A DNA stretch of 44,371 bases from sequence record OL362273.1, one strand, 5' to 3'. Under the pieces are notes generated by a model, which was not told the DNA's origin, did no database searches, and was given only the letters and a program-made list of their open reading frames with translations. Position numbers and translations under genes: made by a program. The first letter of the stretch is position 1. The number at the start of each line of letters is the position of its first letter. Shown here piece after piece: positions 4,039 to 40,061 of this stretch. The stretch comes from Escherichia phage 6949.

Positions 4039-4061
4039 ATTTACTGGACACTATAGAAGAG
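4039..4061 (+). promoter_or_regulatory. SP6-type phage promoter upstream of tailspike 1
   Basis: ATTTACTGGACACTATA followed by GAAGAG, with the predicted +1 G at 4056. A leader hairpin lies at 4072-4089. Confidence 0.8.
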
Positions 4062-8231: not shown

Positions 8232-8420
8232 TCTCTCGCCCTCGCCCTCGCCGGGTTGTCCCCATAGGGTGGCCTGAGGGAATCCGTCTTCGACGGGCAT
8301 GGCTGATGTACTCCTTGGATAGTACAAGGGAGGCGGAGGGAACGCCTAGGGAGGCCTAGGAATGGCTTAGTGGTGGACAAGGTGATTACCTTAGTGAAGC
8401 CTCTTAGTGCATTCCTGAGG
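8232..8420. repeat. Probable genome terminus and terminal-repeat region (one collapsed copy)
   Basis: TCTCTCGCCCTCGCCCTCGCCGGGTTGTCCCCATAGGG at 8232 parallels the T7 left end as I recall it (TCTCACAGTG...CCCCCATAGGGGG). The region is non-coding and the first early genes lie downstream. The exact boundaries cannot be set from one collapsed copy. Confidence 0.4.
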
Positions 8421-8794
8421 CCATTCAGGGCTTTTATGAGGTATTGACAGGGTGGATGGGCGTGGGCTATCTGTTCGTTTCGTTCACTCCGCTTGCGCTA
8501 CGTTCACTCGCTCACGTGTACCTTATGCTATTACTTGATGGATAGCTTAGGTTATAGCTTAGTGGCCTACCTTAGTTATAACCTTAGTGCATAGCTTAGT
8601 ATCAGCTTAGTAGTGTACCTTAGTAAGTCTTAGTGTCTTCTCTTAGTGATTGCACATGCAAGCATGTAAGATGCCATTAGGTCGCGGTCGGTAGACCGCT
8701 ACAGAAGGAGAATAGTAATAAGATGCAGTAGGAGGAACACCAGAAACCTAGCCAACCTAGCCTATCCTAGCTCTGTATCTATTGCTTTTCCTTA

Positions 8795-8810
8795 GTCTAA
8801 CATGTGAGAC
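8795..8810. repeat. Palindrome family copy, degenerate (GTCTAACATGTGAGAC)
   Basis: One mismatch from a perfect 16 bp palindrome. Its flank CTAGGTTGTCTCACATG (read on the minus strand) matches the copy at 14411-14428. Confidence 0.4.
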
Positions 8811-8844
8811 AACCTAGATTTATCTTAGTGATGATATCTTAGTG

Positions 8845-8876
8845 TTGACAAGGCCATCTCAATATAATACTATTCA
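8845..8876 (+). promoter_or_regulatory. Candidate host sigma70 early promoter
   Basis: A perfect TTGACA at 8845-8850 is followed by a TATAATACTAT block. Spacing to the exact TATAAT is only 12 bp, so the working -10 is more likely TACTAT or AATACT at 15-17 bp. It sits upstream of the first early genes. Confidence 0.35.
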
Positions 8877-9016
8877 TCACGTAGGCAGCACTGAGGTGCT
8901 TAGTAGCCAGCTAGTAAGGCATACGAAGAGACTAGCGCTTACATTGCTCTTTAACAATTTGCTTAGTGTAACCTATGTATGCCGTGGTCAATTACTTATT
9001 GAATGAGGGATTAACT

Positions 9017-9811: not shown

Positions 9812-10171
9812 ATGGCTATGTCTAATATGACTTACTCTCAGGTTTACAACACTGCTCATGCTGCATTAGTTGAACGTATCTGGAATGATGCTATTGATTG
9901 TATTGATAACGCACATGATGCAATCCATGATGCGGCGGATAGTGCTGTACCAATCTATTATGCTGACATCTTCTCCGTGATGGCGAGTGAAGGAATTGAT
10001 CATTTCTTCGAAGACTCCGGCCTGATGCCAGACACTAAGGATGTAACCGTAGTATTGCAAGCCCGTATCTATGAGCAACTCACAGTTGATCTATGGGAAC
10101 GTGTTCAGTATATGATTGTTGAATACGTCAACTCCGCCGAATATTTAGAAAAAGAAGAAGAGGAAGAATAA
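9812..10171 (+). CDS. ocr: Ocr (T7 gp0.3-like DNA mimic, anti-restriction)
   Basis: The translation from ATG 9812 is MAMSNMTY...[41 protein letters not shown]...[15 protein letters not shown] with an acidic tail. These blocks match my recollection of T7 Ocr. RBS AGGA lies upstream. Confidence 0.85.
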
Positions 10172-10299: not shown

Positions 10300-10362
10300 G
10301 GCTTAACAAGGCGTTGCTACGGTAGCGCCTGATTAAACTTTCACTTACTAGAGGTTAAAATT

Positions 10363-10488
10363 ATGAAACTATCGCCATCCGCTAAAGGCCTCATTGCAGA
10401 ACTTAAAGACTCTTTGAGGAATCCAATCATTTGGGCACTTATCTACATACCTTATGGTATCTACCTATTTCACCTCATCACTGAGTAA
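10363..10488 (+). CDS. Small early membrane protein (41 aa)
   Basis: RBS GAGGT precedes ATG 10363. The C-terminal segment IIWALIYIPYGIYLFHLI is hydrophobic. Confidence 0.35.
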   Translation: MKLSPSAKGLIAELKDSLRNPIIWALIYIPYGIYLFHLITE

Positions 10489-14278: not shown

Positions 14279-14439
14279 CCGTCGGAGACGGGAAAGAAAG
14301 GGAAGATAAAGGATATAAAGGAAGTAATAGGTATTAAAGGTTATATAGGTTATCTAGGAATACCTATTACCTTCTTCCTTCCTCTTATTACCACTCAGAG
14401 GAAGGGCAGACCTAGGTTGTCTCACATGTGAGACTTCGT
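14279..14439. other. Origin-like region between twin phage promoters (possible primary replication origin)
   Basis: A purine-rich tract (GGAAAGAAAGGGAAGATAAAGGATATAAAGGAAG) and its pyrimidine-rich mirror flank a 12 bp perfect inverted repeat (GTAATAGGTATT at 14324-14335 and AATACCTATTAC at 14359-14370) around an AT-rich spacer. The position matches the T7 primary origin between gene 1 and gene 1.1. Confidence 0.4.
14419..14434. repeat. Palindrome family copy (GTCTCACATGTGAGAC, perfect)
   Basis: A 16 bp perfect palindrome, 5 bp upstream of the promoter at 14440. Confidence 0.55.
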
Positions 14440-14619: not shown

Positions 14620-16608
14620 ATGGCTATTATTCAGAATGTACCGTGTCCTGCCTGTCAAAAGAACGGACATGATATTACTGGCAATCATTTAATGATCTTT
14701 GACGACGGGGCAGGATACTGTAACCGTGGTCACTTCCATGATAACGGTAAACCTTATTACCACAAGCCGGAAGGTGGCATCGAGATAACCGAGTTACCTA
14801 TTACTGGCAATATCAAATATACACCTTCTCAATTCAAAGAAATGGAGAAGGAAGGGAAGATAAGCGACCCTAAATTACGTGCCATCGCACTAGGTGGTAT
14901 GCGTATGAAAGACCGTTGGGAGGTCATGAATGAGCAAGAAAGGGCAGACCAAGAAGCAGAGTGGAAACTTGATGTTGAATGGTTCCTCACGCTTAAGCGT
15001 AAGAACCTTGTTTCCCGACACATTCGCGGCGACATTTGCGCATTGTATGATGTACGTGTCGGACACGATGAAGAGGGTAGAGTCTCGCGGCATTACTATC
15101 CACGCTTCGAGAAAGGTGAGCTAGTAGGAGCTAAGTGTCGTACCTTACCTAAAGATTTCAAGTTTGGACACTTAGGTAAACTCTTTGGTATGCAAGATCT
15201 TTTCGGTATGAATACTTTGTCTCACGTGTTAGACAAGGGAAGACGAAAGGATTGCTTGCTTATTGTGGGTGGGGAACTGGATGCACTAGCAGCGCAGCAG
15301 ATGCTCCTTGATTCTGCCAAGGGTACTAAGTGGGAAGGTCAACCTTACCATGTATGGTCTGTTAACAAAGGGGAGTCTTGCCTTGAAGAGATTGTGCAGA
15401 ACCGTGAACACATCGCCCAATTCAAGAAGATTATTTGGGGCTTCGATGGGGATGAGGTAGGGCAGAAGCAGAACCAGCAAGCGGCTCGCCTGTTCCCTGG
15501 CAAATCCTATATCCTTGAGTACCCTTCTGGTTGCAAAGATGCCAACAAGGCATTGATGGCTGGCAAGGCTAAAGAGTTTGTTGATGCATGGTTTAATGCC
15601 AAGTCATCTGATGAAGTCTTTGGTAGCCAGATTAAATCTATCGCATCTCAAAGGGATAAGCTCAAGGCTGCACGTCCAGAGCAAGGACTATCATGGCCTT
15701 GGCCTAAGCTGAACAAGGTAACGCTAGGTATTCGTAAGAATCAGCTTATCATTGTAGGTGCAGGGTCTGGTGTAGGTAAGACTGAGTTCCTTCGTGAAGT
15801 AGTTAAGCACCTCATTGAAGAACACGGTGAATCTGTAGGCATCATTTCTACAGAAGACCCGATGGTCAAGGTGTCCCGTGCTTTTATCGGCAAGTGGATT
15901 GATAAGCGTATTGAGTTACCGCCAACCAACGACCCGAAAGAAGACGGATACCGTGAGGTGTTCGATTACACCGAGGAAGAAGCTAACGCCGCCATTGATT
16001 ATGTAGCTGATACAGGTAAGCTGTTTGTAGTTGACCTAGAGGGTGACTATTCGATGGAAAAGGTAGAGCAAACTTGCCTAGAGTTTGAGGCTATGGGTAT
16101 TTCTAATATCATCATTGATAACTTAACGGGGATTAAATTAGATGAGCGTGCTTTTGGTGGGAAGGTTGGTGCACTTGATGAATGCGTCAAGCGGATTGGT
16201 ACTATCAAAGACCGACACCCGGTTACTATATTCCTTGTATCACACCTTACACGTCCTCCGGCAAACCGTACCCAACACGAAGAAGGTGGCGAAGTTATCC
16301 TTTCTGACTTCCGAGGCTCAGGCGCTATCGGATTCTGGGCATCTTACGCCTTGGGGATTGAGCGTAATACAAGAGCTGAAACGCTTGACGAAAGGACTAC
16401 CACGTACATCTCATGTGTCAAAGACCGCGACCAAGGTATCTGGACTGGAACCAAGGTCATGCTTAAGGGTGACATTCAAACCGGACGTTTAATGGAACCA
16501 CAAGCCCGTACTAAGTCATTTGACACCGGCGAAGCAAGGCAACAAGAAGTACCGGATTTACCGGACACTATAGAAGAGACTAACTTCGATGAAGAAAGTG
16601 AGTTCTGA
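14620..16608 (+). CDS. DNA primase/helicase (T7 gp4-like)
   Basis: The N-terminus has a zinc-binding motif (CPACQ...C.RGH), and the helicase domain has a Walker A motif (GAGSGVGKTEF). The C-terminus is acidic and ends in Phe (DEESEF), as in T7 gp4. Confidence 0.93.
   Translation: MAIIQNVPCPACQKNGHDITGNHLMIFDDGAGYCNRGHFHDNGKPYYHKPEGGIEITELPITGNIKYTPSQFKEMEKEGKISDPKLRAIALGGMRMKDRWEVMNEQERADQEAEWKLDVEWFLTLKRKNLVSRHIRGDICALYDVRVGHDEEGRVSRHYYPRFEKGELVGAKCRTLPKDFKFGHLGKLFGMQDLFGMNTLSHVLDKGRRKDCLLIVGGELDALAAQQMLLDSAKGTKWEGQPYHVWSVNKGESCLEEIVQNREHIAQFKKIIWGFDGDEVGQKQNQQAARLFPGKSYILEYPSGCKDANKALMAGKAKEFVDAWFNAKSSDEVFGSQIKSIASQRDKLKAARPEQGLSWPWPKLNKVTLGIRKNQLIIVGAGSGVGKTEFLREVVKHLIEEHGESVGIISTEDPMVKVSRAFIGKWIDKRIELPPTNDPKEDGYREVFDYTEEEANAAIDYVADTGKLFVVDLEGDYSMEKVEQTCLEFEAMGISNIIIDNLTGIKLDERAFGGKVGALDECVKRIGTIKDRHPVTIFLVSHLTRPPANRTQHEEGGEVILSDFRGSGAIGFWASYALGIERNTRAETLDERTTTYISCVKDRDQGIWTGTKVMLKGDIQTGRLMEPQARTKSFDTGEARQQEVPDLPDTIEETNFDEESEF
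16556..16578 (+). promoter_or_regulatory. SP6-type phage promoter inside the 3' end of the primase/helicase gene
   Basis: ATTTACCGGACACTATA followed by GAAGAG; the predicted +1 G is at 16573. Confidence 0.75.
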
Positions 16609-16628: not shown

Positions 16629-16646
16629 TGTCTCACACGTGAGACA
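16629..16646. repeat. Palindrome family copy (TGTCTCAC-AC-GTGAGACA)
   Basis: Two 8 bp inverted arms separated by 2 bp, extendable with a G-U pair to about 11 bp, followed by CTCTTATT. Confidence 0.55.
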
Positions 16647-17773: not shown

Positions 17774-17791
17774 TGTCTCACGTGTGAGACA
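17774..17791. repeat. Palindrome family copy (TGTCTCAC-GT-GTGAGACA)
   Basis: Two 8 bp inverted arms separated by 2 bp, followed by GCCTTTAT. Confidence 0.55.
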
Positions 17792-17928: not shown

Positions 17929-18133
17929 AGTCAGTAAGGTTTGCTCTTGCGGTAAAGGTTATCGCAGTCGTATTGATGGTAAGTGTGGACATTGTAGGTC
18001 TAAGAAAGAGGCTGCTTTGTTTGACAAGTACCACAATGAATTAGCCTATAACTACCCACATCTAACACCTAATTCTTTATTAGGGCTTGGTTATAGAGCT
18101 AAATACTTTGGAGCAATCTATGAAATCAATTGA
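17915..18133 (+). CDS. Small Cys-rich (zinc-ribbon-like) protein
   Basis: ATG 17915 follows RBS GAGG and is in frame within track ORF 17888-18133. The protein has a CSCG...CGHC motif. Confidence 0.5.
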   Translation: MKTIKVSKVCSCGKGYRSRIDGKCGHCRSKKEAALFDKYHNELAYNYPHLTPNSLLGLGYRAKYFGAIYEIN

Positions 18134-20666
18134 TTGGAAGAAGGAGGCAGAAGGTCGTATCCTCGTGATGGATGCGGAAGCTAAAGGACTCCTTGACGCT
18201 ATCCGATATGGACACCGTGAAGATGTGCATATCATTTGCTGCATGGATTTGCTTACTACCGAGGAGTTTCTCTTCTTTGACCCGTATGAGATGCGCGACC
18301 CTGAGGCAAGGGAACGCCTGAAGGAGTGGGAAGGCCACCAAGACGGAACCTTGATTGATGGTGTTAACTTCCTGAAGCATTGTGAAGCTATTGTGTCACA
18401 GAACTTCCTAGGGTATGACGGACTTCTCTTTGAGAAAGCATTCCCTGATATTTGGAAAGGCTTTAACTATACCGAGAAGCGCGGTAAGGGCAGACTCCGT
18501 GCTGACCTGTGTCCGGTGCGAGTCATGGATACGCTGGTGATGAGTCGCCTGTTAAACCCCGATAGACGCCTTCCTCCGCAAGCATATGCCAAAGGTATGG
18601 GTAACGTCGCCCCTCACTCAATTGAGGCGCACGGCATCCGTATAGGTCGCTATAAACCGGAGAACGAGGACTGGTCTAAACTAACTGACCACATGGTTCA
18701 CCGTGTACGTGAGGACGTGGCGATTGGTCGTGACTTGTTCCTCTGGCTCTTTAACGGGGAATGGATGGAGCACAAACGCCGTGGCGTGAATAAACGCACG
18801 GGCCTAGGCATTGAGACAGCCTTCCACATGGAGTCCATTGTGGCGCTGGAGATGAGCCGTCAGGCCGAGCGTGGGTTCCGTCTGGACATCGACAAGGCTT
18901 TGGCCCGATGCGAAGAATTGGACGCTAAGATTGATGAGACAGTCGCAGCGTTCCGCCCTCACATGCCTATGCGTATCAAGTCTAAACCTTTTAAACCGGA
19001 AGAAAAGAATGAAGTATGCCAACGCGCAAATGAGTATGGAGCTAGCAACAATATACCTACTGTCCTTGACCCCTCACACTTTCTTCATGCCGAGAGACGA
19101 GGAGATCGCAAGACAGTATGGAGTGTCACTACTAAGTCTGGTGATTGGTCGGCTAGTGTCAAGAAAGACTTTCCTCACCTTAGAGGAAACCGTAATGACA
19201 CGCCAAGCATCAAGTGGATTGGCGCTTACTCGCCTGTTACTTTCGAAGAGATTCCCTTGGGTAACAGGGATACAGTTAAGCAAGTGCTCTATGATTATGG
19301 ATGGAAAGGTGTTGAATTTAACGATACCGAGCAAGCGCATCTCGATGAGCACGGAGTGTTACCCAAACCTTGGAGTGGTAAGATAAATGAAAAGTCCCTT
19401 ACTTTATGGCAAGAAAGAGCCGCACGTGAAGGTAAAACAGTCCCTGATTGGTGCTTGGGTATCGCTGCATGGTACATACTCGTATCCCGTCGTGGTCAGA
19501 TACTCAACCGTGGTGACGTTGAAGCCTTCAACGAGAAGGGAACGTGGCCCTCGCAGGCTGGTGTACGAAAGTGTCGCGGCCTTGTACCTGTAGCATTCAA
19601 CAAGGAGCTAGGAATCAATGCGCAGCAATACTACGAGAGGTACGGATGTTGGCCTACGTCTGACAAAGATGACGGAGAGTGGCGTGTTCCAGCTGTTGCT
19701 ATTAGCATTGGCACTTCTACGTTCCGTATGCGTCATCGTAACGTGGTCAATATTCCTGCCCGTGGCTTGTATCCTTTACGTGATTTATTCATAGCAGGGA
19801 AAGGCAAGCTAATCCTTGGTTGTGACGGTGCAGGTCTTGAACTGCGTGTCCTGTCTCACTTCATGAATGACCCTGAGTACCAAGAGATTGTACTGCACGG
19901 TGATATTCATACGCATAACCAGATGAAGGCTGGTCTTCCTAAGCGTGATATGGCGAAGACGTTTATATACGCCTTCCTCTATGGCTCTGGTATAGCCAAC
20001 CTTGCAGCAGTATGTGGTGTTACTGAGGAAGAAATGAAGGAAGTTGTGGCAAGATTCGAGATTGAACTGCCGTCTCTTGCACGTCTTCGTGAGAATGTTA
20101 TCGCACAAGGTAACAAGTTTGGCTACCTGCAAGCACCTGATGGGCATTGGGGTCGCATCCGCATGTCTGGTGGTGAACTTAAAGAGCACACGATGCTTAA
20201 CGTATTACTCCAGATGACTGGCTCTTTGTGTATGAAATATGCATTAGTCAAGGCATTTGCAGTAATGCGCAAGGAAGGTGTAGCTTTGGATGCTATGGGA
20301 AATCCTTGTGGTGTGGCTAACGTGCATGATGAAATCCAGATGGAAGTTCCTGAAGAGGAGGTCTTGTATCTTAACTACGACCTACCTTTCACCTTAGATG
20401 GGTTCGAAACAGAGAAGGCTGCTGTGAAAGCAGTTTTCGATGCAGAGGAGAAACGTGTTCATGTGGATTCTGAAGGACGTATGTGGTCTGCTGCAAACCT
20501 CGTTAGCGTTGATGCTGATGCTGGTGTGTTGCATTGCCAGCGCCGTTATCACCGTGCAGGTCATATCATTGCCGACGCCATGACTTGGGCAGGGCAGTAT
20601 CTGAAGATGCGTTGCCCGATGGCAGGAGAATATAAGATTGGCGCAAGCTGGAAGGAAACACACTGA
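18120..20666 (+). CDS. DNA polymerase, family A (T7 gp5-like) with 3'-5' exonuclease domain
   Basis: The N-terminus has the Exo I motif (VMDAEAKG). The polymerase motifs are GCDGAGLELRVLSHF, KTFIYAFLYGSG and VHDEIQ. ATG 18120 follows RBS GGAG; the track start at 18087 is a TTG. Confidence 0.93.
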   Translation: MKSIDWKKEAEGRILVMDAEAKGLLDAIRYGHREDVHIICCMDLLTTEEFLFFDPYEMRDPEARERLKEWEGHQDGTLIDGVNFLKHCEAIVSQNFLGYDGLLFEKAFPDIWKGFNYTEKRGKGRLRADLCPVRVMDTLVMSRLLNPDRRLPPQAYAKGMGNVAPHSIEAHGIRIGRYKPENEDWSKLTDHMVHRVREDVAIGRDLFLWLFNGEWMEHKRRGVNKRTGLGIETAFHMESIVALEMSRQAERGFRLDIDKALARCEELDAKIDETVAAFRPHMPMRIKSKPFKPEEKNEVCQRANEYGASNNIPTVLDPSHFLHAERRGDRKTVWSVTTKSGDWSASVKKDFPHLRGNRNDTPSIKWIGAYSPVTFEEIPLGNRDTVKQVLYDYGWKGVEFNDTEQAHLDEHGVLPKPWSGKINEKSLTLWQERAAREGKTVPDWCLGIAAWYILVSRRGQILNRGDVEAFNEKGTWPSQAGVRKCRGLVPVAFNKELGINAQQYYERYGCWPTSDKDDGEWRVPAVAISIGTSTFRMRHRNVVNIPARGLYPLRDLFIAGKGKLILGCDGAGLELRVLSHFMNDPEYQEIVLHGDIHTHNQMKAGLPKRDMAKTFIYAFLYGSGIANLAAVCGVTEEEMKEVVARFEIELPSLARLRENVIAQGNKFGYLQAPDGHWGRIRMSGGELKEHTMLNVLLQMTGSLCMKYALVKAFAVMRKEGVALDAMGNPCGVANVHDEIQMEVPEEEVLYLNYDLPFTLDGFETEKAAVKAVFDAEEKRVHVDSEGRMWSAANLVSVDADAGVLHCQRRYHRAGHIIADAMTWAGQYLKMRCPMAGEYKIGASWKETH

Positions 20667-20782
20667 TGGATAGGCTTGACATTATTTGCCTATTCTTCAC
20701 TCTCTTTCTTACACTCCTTATGCTTGCTTGTTATGGGAGTATGAGACTAGATATACCTGATGAAGAAGAGGGTTACGACTAA
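20666..20782 (+). CDS. Tiny hydrophobic peptide (38 aa)
   Basis: The ATG overlaps the polymerase stop (TGATG). The peptide has one transmembrane-like helix and ends ..GYD. It is below the track cutoff. Confidence 0.35.
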   Translation: MDRLDIICLFFTLFLTLLMLACYGSMRLDIPDEEEGYD

Positions 20783-20939: not shown

Positions 20940-21497
20940 ATGAATGAACTGAACACTAAGATGCTCAAGAAAGTTTATAATCTTGTATATAGTATCACGG
21001 GCCTACAATTCTACCCTGTAGGCGGTGCGGTTCGTGACACCCTGTACGGATTAACACCTAAAGACTATGATATGGTGTTGCCTGTAGGGTCTATGGCAGA
21101 TTCTCAGGCGCACGAAATCATGGAAAATATCTCTGAAGAGATGGCAATTATGGGATTTAGTACCAAACTCTACCAATCATACGGTATCAATTTAGGTTAT
21201 GAAATCAACCCTACCTCTTTTCAGGCTATGTTCCTTAGCTGCATGAAAGTGCAGATGCGTAATTGCCAACTTGATTTGCTTCTTTCTAAGGCTGAAACCA
21301 TCCAAGATCATGTACGTAAGCACGATTGCAATATGAATATGGTGTGGTTCGATGGTAAAGATATCAAGTGGGAGCACGGCGGTGTTACTCCTTTCGTTCC
21401 TGTGTTAGAGTTCAACCCTGACGGATGTGATCGTCGCATTGCTTACATGGACAAGAAGCGCCATGAACTTATCCGTCACAAATTAATGCATCTTTGA
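20940..21497 (+). CDS. Minimal nucleotidyltransferase, CCA-adding enzyme / poly(A) polymerase head-domain-like
   Basis: RBS GGAGGA lies 6 nt upstream of ATG 20940. The motif FYPVGGAVRDTLYGLTPKDYDMVL matches the class II tRNA nucleotidyltransferase signature GGxVRD...D.D. At 185 aa it has no room for the usual body and tail domains. Confidence 0.65.
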   Translation: MNELNTKMLKKVYNLVYSITGLQFYPVGGAVRDTLYGLTPKDYDMVLPVGSMADSQAHEIMENISEEMAIMGFSTKLYQSYGINLGYEINPTSFQAMFLSCMKVQMRNCQLDLLLSKAETIQDHVRKHDCNMNMVWFDGKDIKWEHGGVTPFVPVLEFNPDGCDRRIAYMDKKRHELIRHKLMHL

Positions 21498-21519
21498 TTT
21501 ACCGGACACTATAGAAGGA
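21497..21519 (+). promoter_or_regulatory. SP6-type phage promoter
   Basis: ATTTACCGGACACTATA followed by GAAGGA; the predicted +1 G is at 21514. Confidence 0.8.
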
Positions 21520-21583
21520 AGTCCTAGGTAATCTAGGTTTATAAGGTAGTATAGGTAATTAAGTAAATATAGGAGATATAAAC

Positions 21584-21961
21584 ATGTCTATGGTAACTAC
21601 TCTGGTATTTGTAGCTCAATACTTTCGTGGTCTGGCTAATAAGTTCAAGTCCAAGGCTATCAAAGCTATTGAGTCTCGCATCGAGGCAGTACAGGCAGAG
21701 CAAGTTAAAGTTGAAGAGCATCGTAGTTCTCAAATGATTGACTGCCATAACCGCTACTATGCATCTCGTGATGACCTTAATGCACGCCAAGTCAAAGAGG
21801 TTGAAGAGATGCTGGCACGTCACCAGCAAGAGCGCGACAGCCTGAAAGCTGAATTTGAAGAGAACAAGGCATCCATCGCCCTTGTACATCAAGCCGCATC
21901 TGACAACCTGAAGAAGGAGATTGTTATGCTGGAAATTGAGTTAGACAACCTGACCAAATAA
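21584..21961 (+). CDS. Hypothetical protein with N-terminal hydrophobic segment and coiled-coil region
   Basis: RBS AGGAG precedes the ATG. The protein has hydrophobic MSMVTTLVFVAQYF followed by a heptad-like charged helix. Confidence 0.6.
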   Translation: MSMVTTLVFVAQYFRGLANKFKSKAIKAIESRIEAVQAEQVKVEEHRSSQMIDCHNRYYASRDDLNARQVKEVEEMLARHQQERDSLKAEFEENKASIALVHQAASDNLKKEIVMLEIELDNLTK

Positions 21962-21982
21962 TTACTGGACACTATAGAACAA
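21960..21982 (+). promoter_or_regulatory. SP6-type phage promoter
   Basis: AATTACTGGACACTATA followed by GAACAA; the predicted +1 G is at 21977. Confidence 0.8.
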
Positions 21983-22038: not shown

Positions 22039-22845
22039 ATGGCACGTGGTGATTTTGATTTTGGTGCTCAGGTTACTAAAGCTGAAGGTAAGGTTTTTAA
22101 GAACCCTGAAGTTGGCGATCATGAAGCAGTAATCTCTGGCATCATTCATGTGGGTTCCTTCCAAGATATCTTTAAGAAAGGTAATACCACTGAAGCTAAG
22201 AAGCCAGCAAACTTTGTTCTTGTTAAGATTGTACTGATGGGTGACGATGACAAGAACGAAGATGATTCTCGCATGGAACAGTGGATGGCTGTGCCTCTGA
22301 AGTCTGGTGACAAGGCAACCTTGACTAAGTTCCTGAATGCAGTTGACCCTAAAGAGCTGCTTGGTGGTTTCGATGACTTCATCGGTGAATGCCTGACTGC
22401 AACTATGGTTGGCTCTGGCGACAAGAAGGATGATGGTACTTTCAAGTATGTTAACTGGAAAGGCTTTGGCGGTATGCCTGATAAGTTGAAGAAGCTTGTA
22501 CTGGCTCAGGTAGAAGAGGAAGGTCTGTCTATGACAGGTCATATCACCTTCGACAAGCTGACCAAAGAAATCCTTGATGACATTCCTGCTAACTTGGTGC
22601 GTCAATACTTCCTTAATGAAACACCTCGTGGTAAGAACCTGTCTGTTGCTGGTTCTCACGTAGAAGCAATCATTAAAGCTGCTCGTGAAGAAGACCCAGA
22701 GTGGAAGAAAGCCAAGAAGAAAGATGACGAGGATGCTACTCCAGCTAATCGTAAATCTCTGGATACTGGAGAGTCTGTTCCACAGGAAGTACCTGAAGCA
22801 GAAGATACTCCTGCACCGGAGATGGATGAGGACGCGGAATATTAA
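22039..22845 (+). CDS. Putative single-stranded DNA-binding protein (T7 gp2.5-like)
   Basis: A 268 aa protein with a strongly acidic C-terminal tail ending in an aromatic residue (..EMDEDAEY), which is the gp2.5 hallmark. It sits in the replication module. The assignment is by architecture only. Confidence 0.5.
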   Translation: MARGDFDFGAQVTKAEGKVFKNPEVGDHEAVISGIIHVGSFQDIFKKGNTTEAKKPANFVLVKIVLMGDDDKNEDDSRMEQWMAVPLKSGDKATLTKFLNAVDPKELLGGFDDFIGECLTATMVGSGDKKDDGTFKYVNWKGFGGMPDKLKKLVLAQVEEEGLSMTGHITFDKLTKEILDDIPANLVRQYFLNETPRGKNLSVAGSHVEAIIKAAREEDPEWKKAKKKDDEDATPANRKSLDTGESVPQEVPEAEDTPAPEMDEDAEY

Positions 22846-22854
22846 GGAGAAAGG

Positions 22855-23073
22855 ATGAAAGTACAAATCGTAACCCTGCACTGCAAGAAAGGTATCACAA
22901 CGCTAGTAGGTGGCACTTTTCACTCCTTCTCTGAAGGGGACACATATGCTGACCTGCACTACATCTGGCGCGACGGACAGCACGTGGTGAACTACAGCGA
23001 CCCAGCTACGGGGAAACGCCACGGCGTATCGCTTCCGGCGCATGACATTGCTCAGGTGAACACAGTTTTATAA
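22855..23073 (+). CDS. Hypothetical protein (72 aa)
   Basis: RBS AAGGAG precedes the ATG. No motif was recognised. Confidence 0.5.
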   Translation: MKVQIVTLHCKKGITTLVGGTFHSFSEGDTYADLHYIWRDGQHVVNYSDPATGKRHGVSLPAHDIAQVNTVL

Positions 23074-23074
23074 A

Positions 23075-23090
23075 GTCTCACGTGTGAGAC
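23075..23090. repeat. Palindrome family copy (GTCTCAC-GT-GTGAGAC)
   Basis: Two 7 bp inverted arms separated by 2 bp, lying between the stop at 23073 and the promoter at 23106. Confidence 0.5.
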
Positions 23091-23105
23091 AAATCGGTGT
23101 CCGGT

Positions 23106-23128
23106 ATTTACTGGACACTATAGAAGAG
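23106..23128 (+). promoter_or_regulatory. SP6-type phage promoter
   Basis: ATTTACTGGACACTATA followed by GAAGAG; the predicted +1 G is at 23123. Confidence 0.85.
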
Positions 23129-23178
23129 AAGAATTTTAATCGGCGATAATGCCATAACCAACAAAAGGAGAATTTAAT

Positions 23179-23553
23179 ATGTTCAAGATTGAAACTATCG
23201 TAAACCGTGTTGTTAAAGGTGCTGCTCTGGTATCCGTTGAGTCTTTCATTATCGTCGATGAAGCTGATCAACTGGTAGCTGGTACTAAGGCTTATGATAC
23301 TCGTGAAGAAGCTCAGGCTAAGATTGACAGCATGGGTAACTTCGCTGCGGGTCTGGAGTTCGCTCGTGCTTGCTTCCCTGAGCAGGCTGACAAAGCTCAG
23401 ATTGGTAAGGCTAATATCGTAGCTGAATATCTGGATTGGATTGCTGCTGGTAAGCCGGTGAAAGAAGTTAAAGCTGCGGAAGAAGTTGAAGCTCCGGCAG
23501 TAGAAGAAGTAGCTGCACCGGAAGTTCCGGTAAGCGAAGAAGAAGAGTTTTAA
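23179..23553 (+). CDS. Acidic hypothetical protein (124 aa) in a stand-alone promoter-gene-terminator unit
   Basis: RBS AAGGAG precedes the ATG. The C-terminal tail is acidic and ends SEEEEF. A terminator follows directly. Confidence 0.6.
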   Translation: MFKIETIVNRVVKGAALVSVESFIIVDEADQLVAGTKAYDTREEAQAKIDSMGNFAAGLEFARACFPEQADKAQIGKANIVAEYLDWIAAGKPVKEVKAAEEVEAPAVEEVAAPEVPVSEEEEF

Positions 23554-23559
23554 TTGATG

Positions 23560-23592
23560 CCCTGTCTGCCTTAGTGTAGGCAGGGTCTTTTG
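23560..23592 (+). terminator. Intrinsic terminator
   Basis: The stem CCCUGUCUG / UAGGCAGGG (two G-U pairs) encloses an 8 nt loop and is followed by TCTTTTG. It is a homolog of the terminator after the capsid gene. Confidence 0.55.
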
Positions 23593-23617
23593 CGTAATAG
23601 TTATTGGAGAATGAATT

Positions 23618-23908
23618 ATGCCGACTATTGAAGAACGTTTCCTGATTCACGTGAGCTTCTCATCCATACATCTTGGTTATCTTATCACTATTCTCTTAGG
23701 TGAAGAGATTTATCTGCATAACCACTTAATACCAGAGTATGTATGTCACCGAGATAAGATACACCCTGCTAATTGGGCGAAAGAGTGGCTGCGTGAACAT
23801 GTGCTGAAGGAGTGGCCTACATGCGACCAAACTTCGACTTCGGAGCTACAGTATCGGAAGACAATAACCTGTTGCTGTGGCCGACTGAAGGTAATCGAAT
23901 CGCTTTAA
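23618..23908 (+). CDS. Hypothetical ORF overlapping the exonuclease start (uncertain)
   Basis: RBS GGAG precedes ATG 23618. Its 3' end overlaps the exonuclease gene by about 88 nt in another frame, so it may be shorter than drawn or not expressed. Confidence 0.3.
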   Translation: MPTIEERFLIHVSFSSIHLGYLITILLGEEIYLHNHLIPEYVCHRDKIHPANWAKEWLREHVLKEWPTCDQTSTSELQYRKTITCCCGRLKVIESL

Positions 23909-24849
23909 TAGATGCTGATATGTTACCTTACATCGTCGGGTATACAATCAGTGACATGACTTATGTACGAGCCACAACTCGTGTTAAGTCAGGACAAGTC
24001 CTATCAATCAAAGATACCCCTGAGTGTAAGCAAGCGTGTGACCGTGTGAACTCCTTGCTTAACTCTTGGGTGTATGCAGCAGAGTGTGATGCTGCTAAGT
24101 TATTCATGACGAAATCAGAAGCTAACTTCCGAGTTCGCCTAGCCTTCACCAAACCTTATAAGGGTCAACGTAAGACCGAGAAGCCTCCGTTCTTCTATGA
24201 ATTGCGAGAGCATCTCTTAGAGGTTCATGGTGCAATATTGGCAGATGGAGAAGAGGCTGATGACCTCATGAGCATTGCACAATGGGACAGCCACCGCCGC
24301 TTCCAGCAAGATACAGGTAACGAGTTCCCTATCGGTAGTCCAGAGCATAAAGCATTCTCTGATACTTGCATCGTTTCCTTAGATAAGGATTTGATGATTG
24401 TTCCCGGTTGGCATCTTCAGCCGGGTCAAGAGAAGAAATGGGTAGAGCCTATGGGTTGGCTTGAGTTACGCCGTAAGGCTAATGGTCAGGTTAAAGACCT
24501 TAAAGGTGCTGGCCTCATGTTTCATTATGCACAGATGATTATCGGTGATGATATTGATAACTATGCTGGCATACCTGGACGTGGTGCTAAATACGCCTAT
24601 GATCTTCTCAAAGATTGTAAGACAGAGAAAGAGTTGTACATGGCAGTGCTTGGTGCTTACAAGGCTAAGTTCGGACATGGGCAAGTTAAGATTAAGAATT
24701 ACCGAGGTGGTTATCGTATCGGCAAGGCTTTTGACCTGATGCTCGAATGTGGTCGCCTAGCTCACATGGCAAGATTCAAAGGTGATATATGGCGAGCCGA
24801 TAAGAACCCAATCTTGTGGGGAGATGATGCGGAATGGTTAGCAAATTAA
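23821..24849 (+). CDS. 5'-3' exonuclease (T7 gp6-like, FEN family)
   Basis: The N-terminal acidic cluster IALIDADMLPY, plus EEADD, IVSLDKDL and GIPG motifs, are as in T7 gp6. ATG 23821 follows RBS AAGGAG; the track start is a GTG. Confidence 0.85.
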   Translation: MRPNFDFGATVSEDNNLLLWPTEGNRIALIDADMLPYIVGYTISDMTYVRATTRVKSGQVLSIKDTPECKQACDRVNSLLNSWVYAAECDAAKLFMTKSEANFRVRLAFTKPYKGQRKTEKPPFFYELREHLLEVHGAILADGEEADDLMSIAQWDSHRRFQQDTGNEFPIGSPEHKAFSDTCIVSLDKDLMIVPGWHLQPGQEKKWVEPMGWLELRRKANGQVKDLKGAGLMFHYAQMIIGDDIDNYAGIPGRGAKYAYDLLKDCKTEKELYMAVLGAYKAKFGHGQVKIKNYRGGYRIGKAFDLMLECGRLAHMARFKGDIWRADKNPILWGDDAEWLAN

Positions 24850-26244: not shown

Positions 26245-26261
26245 TTGACACTATAGAACAA
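26239..26261 (+). promoter_or_regulatory. SP6-type phage promoter
   Basis: ATTTAGTTGACACTATA followed by GAACAA, which is very close to the canonical SP6 promoter. Confidence 0.8.
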
Positions 26262-26849: not shown

Positions 26850-27023
26850 ATGGAAGGTAAACTGTATAGAGGGTACTTCGGTAACTTATATAAAGTAAGC
26901 TCTCGCGGTTTTGTATTGACCTCTGATGATGAAGGTGCAATGTGGCACCTAAGTGCATATGGTTCTAACTTAGCACACTTTAAAGAGGCAATAGTCAAAG
27001 GTGTGATGAAGGAGGTGAAATGA
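26850..27023 (+). CDS. Small hypothetical protein (57 aa)
   Basis: ATG 26850 is coupled to the upstream stop and is in frame within track ORF 26832-27023. Confidence 0.45.
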   Translation: MEGKLYRGYFGNLYKVSSRGFVLTSDDEGAMWHLSAYGSNLAHFKEAIVKGVMKEVK

Positions 27024-27967
27024 ACATCTTCCAATTCCTAGGTCTTCCAGAAGACCACCGCAATCATCCATTCATGCTGGTGAAGCATCGCGGTGAAGTT
27101 CCTGAGAAGAAATTAACTTTTCCATGTTATGCACAGGTGAAACGAGATGGAATATTCAGTGCTGTTGTGGTGCGTAATGATGGTGTTGTTGCCATCTTTG
27201 GTCGTACTGGTAAGAAGCTCGCAAATGTTGAAGCCTTGGAAAAGACATTTAGTGTATTTCCTGTCGGGTTGTATCTTGGTGAGTTGCAATCTATGGCTGT
27301 TGATGTTTATCTTGAAGCTCTGTCAGGAGTGGTAAACCCTAATCGTACAGAGCCACTTGATTTCATAGGGCAGCAGATTAAAGACAACCTATATATCGAC
27401 TTCTTCGATATGTTAACCATTAAGGCATTCCATGATGGATTCACTGATGTTTCTTATCTCAAACGTTACGATGCTTTACATCGTCGCATCGGCACTCATC
27501 TTAGCGGGTACAACGCTATTCTTCCTATTACTCCTTGCCATAATGAGCGAGAGGTTGAAGCGTTTGCTCAAGAGCAAATAGATGCAGGCAGAGAAGGTGC
27601 GGTATTTAAACTTGACGTGGAGTACGAAAGTGGGCACAAGGGCTATCGTCAAACGAAGATTGTTCGTATGGTATCTTATGACCTCACCTGCATTGGGTGG
27701 GAGGAAGGAAAAGGTAAGTATAAAGGTAAAGTAGCTAATTTAATCTTTAAATGGAAAGGTGGTAAGTCCGTTAAGGCTATGCTGGGGCGTGGCTGGTCAC
27801 ATGAGGATGCAGCACAGATGTATCACGATATTAAGCACGGTGGCGAACTAAACGTCATTGGGAAAATCTTCGCTGTTAAGGCGTTACAGGAATCTAGTAA
27901 GGGAGTCCTGAGACTCCCCAAGGTTTCTGAACTTAGGTTTGATAAGGAAGTCCCTGATGTCTTCTAA
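27020..27967 (+). CDS. ATP-dependent DNA ligase (T7 gp1.3-like)
   Basis: RBS AAGGAGGTG precedes the ATG. The adenylation motif I is present as KRDG (AQVKRDGIFSAV), together with EGAVFK. The size fits phage ligases. Confidence 0.9.
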   Translation: MNIFQFLGLPEDHRNHPFMLVKHRGEVPEKKLTFPCYAQVKRDGIFSAVVVRNDGVVAIFGRTGKKLANVEALEKTFSVFPVGLYLGELQSMAVDVYLEALSGVVNPNRTEPLDFIGQQIKDNLYIDFFDMLTIKAFHDGFTDVSYLKRYDALHRRIGTHLSGYNAILPITPCHNEREVEAFAQEQIDAGREGAVFKLDVEYESGHKGYRQTKIVRMVSYDLTCIGWEEGKGKYKGKVANLIFKWKGGKSVKAMLGRGWSHEDAAQMYHDIKHGGELNVIGKIFAVKALQESSKGVLRLPKVSELRFDKEVPDVF

Positions 27968-28442
27968 TCCAAATTATCGAAAACCACCTCGTACACCGCC
28001 AAGACCACTTGCCTACTGTCCTTTTACTGGAAAGCTTTTCCGTAAGTTCAAAGATGGCTGGAGAGAAACAGGACTTAGCAGAAAGAGTGATGGATATTTA
28101 CAGTATAAAGTCGATGGTAAGACTGTAAGTGTTCATGTTTTAGCAATGAATATGATGGGTTATGACACTACCGGCTTTACAGTAGATCACATAAATCATA
28201 TACGCTGGGATAATAGGTTTATTAATCTACGTCTACTATCTCATAAAGATAATTGTTTAAATAGAGAGGCGATACATACAAGTAAGCTGCCGAGTGGTAA
28301 CTACAGAGCGCGATGTGGAAATGTTCATCTTGGCGTATTTGAGGATAAGTTACTTGCTCGTGGTGCTATCCTATGGTATCGCCATAGGAGATTTAATAAT
28401 GTTAAATTCAATGAAGGCAACGCGTGCCGTAGAAGTAGCTGA
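27957..28442 (+). CDS. HNH homing endonuclease
   Basis: The motif SVHVLAMNMMGYDTTGFTVDHINHIRWDNRFINLRLLSHKDN is an HNH signature. The ORF overlaps both neighbours, as a compact insertion would. Confidence 0.8.
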   Translation: MSSNPNYRKPPRTPPRPLAYCPFTGKLFRKFKDGWRETGLSRKSDGYLQYKVDGKTVSVHVLAMNMMGYDTTGFTVDHINHIRWDNRFINLRLLSHKDNCLNREAIHTSKLPSGNYRARCGNVHLGVFEDKLLARGAILWYRHRRFNNVKFNEGNACRRSS

Positions 28443-28593
28443 AGCTATATTTGAAACTTTATCCTGTGGCATGGAAGTGCCATATACTTTACTGGCTGAT
28501 GCAGAAGAACTTGGTCTTTCTGTAGAAGCTATCCAAGAGAAGGTTGACGAATTATATGGTACAGACGAAGAAGAAACCGACGATTTCATTTGA
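28399..28593 (+). CDS. Small acidic hypothetical protein (64 aa)
   Basis: RBS AGGAG lies 8 nt upstream of ATG 28399. The C-terminus is acidic (EEETDDFI). The 5' end overlaps the HNH gene. Confidence 0.45.
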   Translation: MLNSMKATRAVEVAEAIFETLSCGMEVPYTLLADAEELGLSVEAIQEKVDELYGTDEEETDDFI

Positions 28594-31875: not shown

Positions 31876-31882
31876 TTCAGTA

Positions 31883-31954: not shown

Positions 31955-33163
31955 ATGTCTACACCGAATACTCTGACTAACGTTGCTGTATCTGCATCCG
32001 GTGAGGTTGACAGCCTTCTCATTGAGAAGTTTAATGGTAAGGTCAATGAGCAGTACCTGAAAGGTGAGAACATTCTGTCCTACTTTGATGTACAAACTGT
32101 TACTGGCACTAACACAGTGAGCAACAAATATTTGGGCGAAACTGAGTTGCAGGTGCTAGCACCGGGTCAGTCTCCTAATGCCACCCCTACTCAGGCGGAT
32201 AAAAACCAGTTGGTAATTGATACCACTGTCATTGCTCGTAACACTGTGGCTCACATCCACGATGTACAAGGTGACATCGATAGCCTGAAACCAAAATTGG
32301 CTATGAACCAAGCCAAGCAACTGAAACGTCTGGAAGACCAGATGGCAATTCAGCAGATGCTGTTAGGCGGTATTGCTAACACCAAGGCCAAACGTAACAA
32401 GCCGCGTGTTAAAGGGCATGGCTTCTCTATCAACGTTAACGTAACTGAGAGTGAAGCACTGGCTAACCCTCAGTATGTTATGGCTGCGGTAGAGTATGCT
32501 CTGGAGCAACAGCTTGAGCAGGAAGTGGACATCTCTGATGTAGCTATCATGATGCCGTGGAAGTTCTTCAATGCTCTGCGTGATGCAGACCGAATTGTAG
32601 ATAAGACTTACACTATCAGCCAGTCTGGTGCAACCATTAATGGCTTCGTTCTCTCTTCTTATAACTGCCCTGTGATCCCGTCTAACCGATTCCCTACCTT
32701 CGCTCAGAATCAGGCTCACCACCTGTTGTCTAATGAAGATAACGGCTATCGTTATGACCCTATCGCAGAGATGAATGGTGCAGTTGCTGTTCTGTTCACT
32801 GCCGACGCACTGCTGGTGGGTCGTACCATTGAAGTGACTGGTGACATCTTCTATGAGAAGAAAGAGAAGACTTATTACATTGACACCTTCATGGCTGAGG
32901 GTGCAATCCCTGACCGTTGGGAAGCAGTGTCTGTAGTTACCACTAAACGTAATGCAACTACTGGTGCTGCTGAAGTTTCTGGTGATGATCACGCAACCGT
33001 ACTGGCTCGTGCACAGCGTAAGGCTGTATATGTCAAAACCGAAGGTGCTGCGGCTGCATTCTCTGCTGCCCCAGCAGGTATCCAAGCGGAAGACCTTGTA
33101 GCGGCGGTACGTGCTGTAATGGCAAATGACATTAAGCCGACTGCAATGAAACCTACTGAGTAA
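31955..33163 (+). CDS. Major capsid protein (T7 gp10-like)
   Basis: A 402 aa ORF with RBS AAGGAG, bracketed by a strong promoter with a stabilising leader hairpin and a strong terminator. Confidence 0.9.
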   Translation: MSTPNTLTNVAVSASGEVDSLLIEKFNGKVNEQYLKGENILSYFDVQTVTGTNTVSNKYLGETELQVLAPGQSPNATPTQADKNQLVIDTTVIARNTVAHIHDVQGDIDSLKPKLAMNQAKQLKRLEDQMAIQQMLLGGIANTKAKRNKPRVKGHGFSINVNVTESEALANPQYVMAAVEYALEQQLEQEVDISDVAIMMPWKFFNALRDADRIVDKTYTISQSGATINGFVLSSYNCPVIPSNRFPTFAQNQAHHLLSNEDNGYRYDPIAEMNGAVAVLFTADALLVGRTIEVTGDIFYEKKEKTYYIDTFMAEGAIPDRWEAVSVVTTKRNATTGAAEVSGDDHATVLARAQRKAVYVKTEGAAAAFSAAPAGIQAEDLVAAVRAVMANDIKPTAMKPTE

Positions 33164-33171
33164 CACCTATG

Positions 33172-33207
33172 CCCTATCTACCTTGCGTAGGTAGGGTTCT
33201 TTTTGTT
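33172..33207 (+). terminator. Intrinsic terminator after the capsid gene (T-phi analog)
   Basis: The 9 bp stem CCCUAUCUA / UAGGUAGGG (one G-U pair) encloses a 7 nt loop and is followed by TTCTTTTTGTT. Confidence 0.7.
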
Positions 33208-40043: not shown

Positions 40044-40061
40044 TGTCTCACATGTGAGACA
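40044..40061. repeat. Palindrome family copy (TGTCTCACATGTGAGACA, perfect 18 bp)
   Basis: A perfect 18 bp palindrome between the two large internal virion protein genes, followed by GGTCTTTAT. Confidence 0.55.

Follow-up and report, generated by a model that had tools for sequence, protein, structure and literature searches.

Phages of the SP6 and K1-5 type are candidates for therapy and the source of a standard in vitro transcription enzyme, and what is likely their most highly expressed nonstructural gene stands without a name or function in more than 200 genome records. The 44,371-base stretch of DNA analyzed here, which we call the window, presents this gene in a conspicuous setting, with a phage promoter in front of it and a hairpin terminator directly behind it (23106-23592). 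For what purpose would a small protein, encoded in the midst of the replication module and ending in an acidic tail with a terminal phenylalanine, be produced in large amounts?

A promoter-gene-terminator cassette within the replication module

The window comprises an entire genome, circularly permuted, of a Vectrevirus, a member of the SP6/K1-5 group (Autographiviridae, Molineuxvirinae). Its gene order is that of the annotated relative LL11, and many Escherichia phage records match the region from 22800 to 24000 at 95-99% identity. The 124-aa gene (23179-23553, + strand; stop codon at 23551-23553) is the homolog of SP6 gp20 and falls into PHROG 4429; its product is referred to as gp20 below. 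This SP6 numbering is also used in PMC4837284, which further describes the positions of promoters and terminators in SP6-type genomes (citing Dobbins 2004). The promoter, ribosome-binding site, 124-aa gene, hairpin terminator, and ...SEEEEF end named in the initial annotation were all found where it had placed them.

Promoters of the SP6/K1-5-type phage RNA polymerase were recognized as a conserved sequence of ~23 nt, ATTTA(C/G)..GACACTATAGAAG, that is found repeatedly on the coding strand, 5′ of genes. Eight sites in the window matched with at most 3 mismatches, versus 0 expected, and the core of the motif was matched 12 times. The copy at 23106-23128 (+ strand, ATTTACTGGACACTATAGAAGAG) fits the window consensus exactly; the copy at 4039 has the same sequence, and the capsid gene promoter at 31882 differs from it at a single position. 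By analogy with the SP6 promoter, its predicted +1 is the G at 23123. A Shine-Dalgarno sequence, AAGGAG (23165-23170, + strand), precedes the ATG at 23179 by 8 nt.

On the 3′ side, intrinsic (Tphi-like) terminators were predicted as GC-rich hairpins located 3′ of a stop codon and followed at once by a run of U, and such a structure occupies 23559-23592 (+ strand). Its 11-bp GC-rich stem (23559-23586), which includes six GC pairs and starts 5 bases past the stop codon of the 124-aa gene, encloses a 6-nt loop and is followed by CUUUUG. The hairpin has a folding energy of -18.3 kcal/mol (z of -3.6), a value attained by none of 200 shuffled sequences, and a terminator at this place is annotated in one GenBank relative (MK373771). 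It is also similar to the terminator behind the capsid gene, as seen from GCCCTGTCTGCC..GGCAGGGT at 23559-23586 and GCCCTATCTACC..GGTAGGGT at 33171-33197, which suggests a shared termination signal or a duplication. The promoter scan of the window found no promoter-like site between 23128 and 26246. Because the next such site lies only at 26246, the terminator at 23559-23592 must be leaky, and the genes for the 96-aa protein, exonuclease, endonuclease VII, and phosphoesterase would therefore be transcribed by read-through. The terminator would thus keep the dose high for genes located 5′ of it and low for those located 3′ of it.

Two families of short repeats were noted in the window. A palindrome or hairpin, GTCTCACGTGTGAGAC, is located just 5′ of the gp20 promoter (23075-23090, + strand). 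This element, GTCTCAC(N2-3)GTGAGAC, occurs in five intergenic copies in the window (14419-14434, 16630-16645, 17775-17790, 23075-23090, and 40045-40060), versus 0.02 expected. It was also found in the genomes L001, L002, L003 (Vibrio phage AS51), and L005, and relatives from Erwinia, Vibrio, and Pseudomonas have it as well, in many cases immediately 5′ of a phage promoter; in L003 and L005, that promoter is the one of the gp20 homolog. The palindrome could be an RNA-processing site or the binding site of a dimeric protein. The other repeat, CTTAGTG, is present in 10 + strand copies within ~600 noncoding bases (8366-8968) beside the presumed genome end and in 21 copies in the whole window, versus 7.6 expected; the array recalls the short repeats beside the terminal repeats of T7-type genomes.

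Conservation of the cassette and codon usage of its gene

The locus was compared with those of six distant relatives, namely, Erwinia phage Era103, Vibrio phage AS51, Ralstonia phage Reminis, Pseudomonas phage Nerthus, Marinomonas phage CB5A, and Aeromonas phage Aer_P220. Together with the window, these seven genomes span Molineuxvirinae, Colwellvirinae, and unclassified Autographiviridae, and the gp20 homologs of the six relatives share 36-54% protein identity with the window gene. All six keep the order DNA polymerase, gp18-like gene, sometimes a small gene, gp20-like gene, exonuclease, and endonuclease VII. A phage promoter stands 5′ of the gp20 homolog in six of the seven genomes (the window and five of the six relatives), and in five distant genomes, it is an exact 16-mer match to the promoter of the phage's own major capsid gene. 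On its 3′ side, the gp20 homolog is bordered by a GC-rich hairpin and U-tract in 7/7 genomes (the window and L002-L007). The hairpin of AS51 (L003) is strong and likewise ends in a U-tract (10307-10381, GCCCTGCCGCACTAGATGCGGTGGGGCTTATTTTTG); the AS51 genome paper gives three terminators, none of which is this hairpin (PMC4099482).

Codon usage was first scored with E. coli weights, by which the gp20 homolog reaches a codon adaptation index (CAI) of 0.662, the maximum of the genome, followed by 0.504 for the gp18-like gene and 0.489 for the capsid gene. These weights were applied to the window and to T7. A second, reference-free analysis, in which the capsid gene of each phage supplied the weights, had the same outcome. 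By the capsid-derived weights, the gp20 homolog ranked first in all seven genomes, and gp18 ranked second in four of them. The compact high-expression unit that the initial annotation had read from one genome is therefore a recurrent arrangement of promoter, terminator, and favored codons as far as sequence can tell, and the gp20 homolog looks like the most highly expressed nonstructural gene of SP6/K1-5-type phages. In addition, gp18 was found in 215 phage records and gp20 in 212, two sets that nearly coincide and have a matching host breakdown.

Another small gene of the cluster, which encodes the 125-aa homolog of SP6 gp17 (21497-21961), is preceded by a phage promoter of its own at 21497 and ranks fourth in codon adaptation (0.476). 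PHROGs label it "polysaccharide chain length determinant protein," which seems to be spurious, and its Pfam matches are weak and mostly to coiled-coil or DUF families.

The 124-aa protein joins a non-OB core to a Phe-tipped acidic tail

The gp20 homolog is labeled "hypothetical protein" in all records and "unknown function" in PHROGs, where the 124-aa protein and the 268-aa gp18-like protein matched only families of this kind. Pfam gave no match for either protein, and sequence and profile searches of the PDB with A1, A2, A3, and gp18 returned nothing significant. A search of 5.8 billion proteins with the A3 profile yielded no relatives beyond the family, no fusions, and no informative names. 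The family is small, a search of 1.84 billion representatives having found only 25 clusters (50% identity), and is confined to Autographiviridae of ~42-47 kb, where it is found in the 212 phage records mentioned above.

We modeled the protein with AlphaFold2 from an alignment of 24 sequences, obtaining a mean pLDDT of 85.9 and values above 90 in the core. Strands are predicted at residues 3-13 and 16-26 and helices at residues 42-51, 53-65, and 71-89; residues from ~96 on are without predicted secondary structure, and the pLDDT is ~61 from about residue 101. The initial annotation had asked for a comparison with SSB and other OB folds. Both the model and a structure search spoke against such a fold, since the predicted core of ~95 aa is alpha/beta and not OB, and an OB fold was rejected. 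Structure comparison of the core gave no convincing structural relative and matched no known replication factor.

The gene can be divided into a core (aa 1-95; 23179-23463, + strand), an acidic linker rich in E, A, P, and V (aa 96-116; 23464-23526, + strand), and the tip PVSEEEEF (23527-23550, + strand). Close relatives differ little in the core and not at all in the tip, whereas the linker drifts in both sequence and length. Phe is the last residue in 137 of the 145 family sequences, and the residue at position -1 is Glu in 127 of the 137 aromatic-ended members and otherwise T, D, A, S, Q, or N, never Pro. Of 25 distant representatives, 17 end in F, 2 carry F one residue from the end, and 6 have no terminal aromatic residue, some of the latter looking truncated. 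The net charge of gp20 is approximately -13 (core, -4; tail, -9). Family-wide, the core carries between -5 and 0 (mean of -2.3), so the negative charge sits in the disordered tail; such a slightly acidic core is unusual for a nucleic acid binder.

Two identities fit these data poorly. An Ocr-like DNA mimic does not agree with a folded core that is only mildly acidic and with acidic charge placed in a disordered tail; the true Ocr homolog of the window is encoded at 9812-10171 and ends in EKEEEEE. A mimic of the bacterial SSB C-terminal tip (D-D-D-[IL]-P-F) is at odds with a -1 residue that is never Pro.

Acidic, aromatic-ended tails recur on replication proteins

The initial annotation had also reported tails of this type on the primase/helicase, an SSB-like protein, and the ligase. 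We searched the window for products that have a terminal aromatic residue and, among the 7 residues before it, three or more acidic ones. This rule selected 4 of 55 gene products, all of which are replication proteins, against a background of 0.54% per position (binomial P of ~2e-4). In addition to gp20, they are the primase/helicase (14620-16608, + strand), which ends in ...NFDEESEF (tip at 16582-16605); the 268-aa gp18-like protein (22039-22845, + strand; own promoter at 21960-21982), which ends in ...EMDEDAEY; and the ATP-dependent DNA ligase (27020-27967, + strand), which ends in ...LRFDKEVPDVF. The helicase-primase ends in F or Y in all six distant relatives, the acidic, [FY]-ended tail of gp18 is conserved in all of them, and the terminal aromatic residue is kept down to ~30% identity in three families (helicase-primase, gp18, and gp20). 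The tails on these three proteins are thus present, nonrandom, and conserved, in agreement with the earlier report.

The ligase stands apart. Its ...KEVPDVF end is there as described, but it is not a long acidic tail: in 6/6 distant relatives, the protein ends in D-[YF], 5-6 residues past a conserved R-x-D-K and with no acidic linker. We presume that the R-x-D-K motif is ligase motif VI. From this pattern, the D-[YF] end may be a minimal docking motif or just part of the fold.

The 268-aa gp18-like protein is predicted, from a modest fold match, to have an OB-like beta core and a disordered tail, which makes it a candidate for the phage SSB. Its N-terminus (aa 1-18; 22039-22095) carries a MAR-x-FDFGA sequence that is nearly invariant family-wide, with F6, G9, and A10 invariant, and that is predicted to be disordered (pLDDT of 36-40); it may be a second short linear motif. 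Two small open reading frames (ORFs) have very acidic ends with a near-terminal aromatic residue and may, on sequence, encode further tail-bearing proteins. One of 64 aa (28399-28593) ends in ..EEETDDFI, its Era103 homolog ends in ..DEDEQDY, and its family (PHROG 5860) is found in 153 phage records. The other, of 38 aa (20666-20782), ends in ..DEEEGYD.

The T7 precedent and a candidate acceptor on the polymerase

The proteins of T7 offer a precedent, as had been pointed out in the initial annotation. T7 gp2.5 ends in ..EADEDGDF and gp4 in ..SNDTDF, and our tail rule, applied to 52 T7 proteins, picks exactly these two, whose tails dock on the T7 DNA polymerase (PMC12339929). According to the same source, the gp2.5 tail sits on the front basic patch of the polymerase, formed by K587, K589, R590, and R591, and a DTDF peptide is bound on gp5 in PDB 6P7E (PMC12339929).

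The family A DNA polymerase of the window (18120-20666, + strand) is 35% identical to gp5 over the palm and fingers. The residues of the T7 front basic patch are not conserved one for one. A conserved basic loop, WGRIR(K)xxGK, is nevertheless present at the aligned position in 7/7 SP6-like polymerases, although the window copy (WGRIR.., aa 677-688) has only R679, R681, and K688 as basic residues; by analogy with T7, the polymerase is the candidate acceptor of the tails. The polymerases of this clade also have a much larger insertion than gp5 at the site of the thioredoxin-binding domain (aa ~255-390), with several conserved basic residues; in T7, the loops of this domain also belong to the basic acceptor.

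Comparison of the gp20 and gp18 families with 39 T7 proteins by hhalign found nothing; A3 and A2 reached a probability of at most 1.8% with gp2.5 and all other small T7 proteins, and homology to gp2.5, gp5.5, gp5.9, and gp2 was therefore rejected. Membership of the 124-aa protein in the T7 gp2.5-like SSB family was likewise rejected, as it has neither gp2.5 homology (hhalign, <2%) nor an OB fold.

A suggestive link to DUF1508

Several independent signals weakly connect residues 1-52 of gp20 to the DUF1508/UPF0339 (YegP-like) domain. Foldseek aligned gp20 with phage DUF1508 proteins at probabilities of 0.82-0.84; one of 24 gp20 members was matched by PF07411 (DUF1508) at an E value of 0.16, short of the Pfam threshold; the family member P0192 bears a third-party label of the DUF1508 type; and hhalign against a self-built profile of nine DUF1508 units gave a P of 0.012 in the register expected from a shared motif, Y-x-[ST]-[KR]-x-x-A-x-x-x-I-x-S. 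In contrast, hhalign against YegP alone gave a probability of 0.2%. Unlike DUF1508/UPF0339, which is characterized by a hairpin-strand-helix fold, gp20 has two extra helices and the acidic tail. Drawn from sequence and model comparisons, the connection is suggestive only.

Single DUF1508 domains reportedly form homodimers (bioRxiv 10.1101/2024.11.21.623966), and paired units have been likened to the sPC4/Whirly superfamily, whose members bind single-stranded nucleic acids (PMC12065111). The 124-aa protein might accordingly be a non-OB single-stranded DNA (ssDNA)-binding protein, built as a dimer of DUF1508-like hairpin-helix units with a PC4/Whirly-like surface. It would then serve as the stoichiometric SSB of SP6-like phages or, paired with the OB-fold gp18, make up half of a two-component SSB, and the -[DE]-[FY]-COOH tip would define a hub on the replisome of this clade at which four clients dock (helicase-primase, gp18, gp20, and ligase). 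We consider this elaboration unlikely. The DUF1508 lead underlies only this reading and not our main conclusion.

Proposed role at the replication fork

Our main conclusion, which we hold tentatively and at somewhat less than an even chance, is that the 124-aa protein is specific to this clade, is produced in amounts like those of an SSB, and works on or near ssDNA at the replication fork. By analogy with T7, its Phe-tipped tail would share an acceptor, probably on the polymerase, with the tails of the helicase-primase and the OB-fold gp18. Transcription from three close phage promoters (21497, 21960, and 23106) would add up over the gp17-gp20 cluster and mostly end at 23559-23592, only read-through reaching the exonuclease and endonuclease genes. 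The expected outcome is a short, hairpin-stabilized, and strongly translated gp20 mRNA, with presumably high amounts of the protein in vivo, and a lower dose of the nucleases. The product would present a ~95-aa folded core (a beta-hairpin and three helices) and a flexible acidic linker ending in the invariant -E-E-F-COOH tip, which would act as a docking motif of the T7 type. Aided by the nearby acidic residues, the side chain and carboxylate of the terminal Phe would plug into a basic/hydrophobic acceptor on one of the phage replication proteins, the DNA polymerase being the likeliest, and the helicase-primase and the gp18-like SSB candidate would use the same acceptor. Working at the fork with gp18, gp20 would help to fill the place that gp2.5 has in T7, any contact with nucleic acid being presumptive. 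A gp20 far above the polymerase in abundance would swamp a single site, which implies several acceptors or a regulatory role.

If this network of tails is real, the T7 replisome model, with its acidic, Phe-tipped tails on the polymerase, would extend to a clade without gp2.5 and would gain at least one new client protein of orphan fold. It would also provide a testable handle on ssDNA coating and fork coordination in these phages and explain a terminator in the middle of the replication module as a means to a high gp17-gp20 dose and a low dose of the downstream nucleases.

Alternative explanations

The very high predicted expression of gp20 would also suit a host takeover factor, i.e., a stoichiometric inhibitor of an abundant host protein (H-NS, HU, or RNA polymerase) or a DNA mimic, comparable to T7 gp5.5, gp5.9, and gp2 at similar map positions, with the acidic tail as part of the mimicry and unconnected with the replisome. 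The net charge of the whole protein (~-13), its orphan fold, and the location of its gene directly 5′ of the exonuclease gene, where T7 carries gp5.5, 5.7, and 5.9, are in keeping with this idea. However, the core is only mildly acidic (-5 to 0), unlike that of Ocr-type mimics, hhalign found no homology of gp20 to any T7 protein, and the most strongly constrained feature is the terminal Phe, which is common to other replication proteins of the same phages. The family moreover spans hosts as unlike as Vibrio, Ralstonia, and Pseudomonas, which favors a phage-encoded or universal partner, and we regard host takeover as rather unlikely. A different target on the host side would be the partners of its SSB: core, disordered acidic linker, and terminal Phe reproduce the architecture of bacterial SSB, and an -EEF end imitating DDDIPF could saturate ExoI, RecQ, PriA, and the chi subunit, thereby disabling host DNA transactions. 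The predicted abundance would suit such a competitor. The decoy is nevertheless weakened by the lack of Pro at -1 and of any gp20 member with an I/L-P-F tip; the tips instead resemble those of T7 gp2.5 and gp4 (GDF and TDF) and of the phage's own helicase and gp18, leaving this explanation very unlikely.

Closer to our main conclusion, gp20 could be a regulator or chaperone of the phage SSB, placing its Phe-tipped tail in the ssDNA cleft of the gp18-like OB protein just as the gp2.5 tail lies in its own cleft. An abundant gp20 would then keep free SSB off RNA and double-stranded DNA or hand it over at the fork. T7 gp2.5 is a fitting parallel, as its tail competes with ssDNA for the same surface; furthermore, the gp18 and gp20 genes are adjacent, occur in almost the same phages, and are both top ranked for codon adaptation in several genomes, and the modeled fold of gp18 is OB-like. 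Because gp18 already carries such a tail itself, it would seem to have no need of one supplied by another protein, and the regulator is improbable in our estimation. Lastly, the shared tails could be a coincidence of compositional bias, with the cassette a convenient transcription boundary around a dispensable gene. Acidic low-complexity C-termini are indeed common in phage proteins, the EKEEEEE end of the window Ocr being an example, and two small ORFs of the window have acidic ends without a terminal aromatic residue. The enrichment of the tails (P of ~2e-4), a tip that stays invariant while the linker drifts, a terminal aromatic residue kept to ~30% identity in three families, and first rank in codon usage in 7/7 genomes all argue against chance, which we find hard to credit.

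Comparison with known systems

Literature searches on SSBs and acidic tails of SP6-like phages yielded neither the shared tails nor a function for gp20, and none of these genes is mentioned in a paper on Salmonella phage resistance. The closest counterpart of gp20 is T7 gp2.5. Both have a phage promoter of their own directly 5′ (phi2.5 in T7), the top codon adaptation of their genome by the same E. coli metric, a folded core followed by a disordered acidic tail ending in Phe, and a gene within the replication module. In contrast, gp20 is half the size of gp2.5, its core is not OB, and gene 2.5 has no dedicated terminator 3′. Similarly, the tail of T7 gp4 (..NDTDF) resembles that of the window helicase-primase (..DEESEF) in being acidic and aromatic-ended, whereas the acceptor residues of the gp4 tail (K587, K589, R590, and R591) correspond to only a basic loop in the window polymerase.

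The layout of the cassette has its parallel in T7 gene 10 and Tphi, where a promoter, the major capsid gene, and a terminator follow one another, as they also do around the capsid gene of the window (31882, 31955-33163, and 33171-33197, respectively). Unlike in T7, the same layout is here found on a nonstructural gene amid the replication module, and essential genes downstream of the gp20 terminator depend on read-through. The C-terminal tip of bacterial SSB, DDDIPF, is an interaction hub, and like the tails described here, it organizes clients via a short, acidic, Phe-ended peptide on a disordered linker. The gp20 tip differs from it in having E or D at -1 rather than Pro and no Ile or Leu at -2. 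Moreover, one protein carries the tip and many partners bind it in bacteria, while the tails in these phages are found on several different proteins. Taken together, the principle is one known from T7, and what appears to be new is that, in a clade lacking gp2.5, it would also cover an orphan protein of apparently very high abundance and perhaps the ligase.
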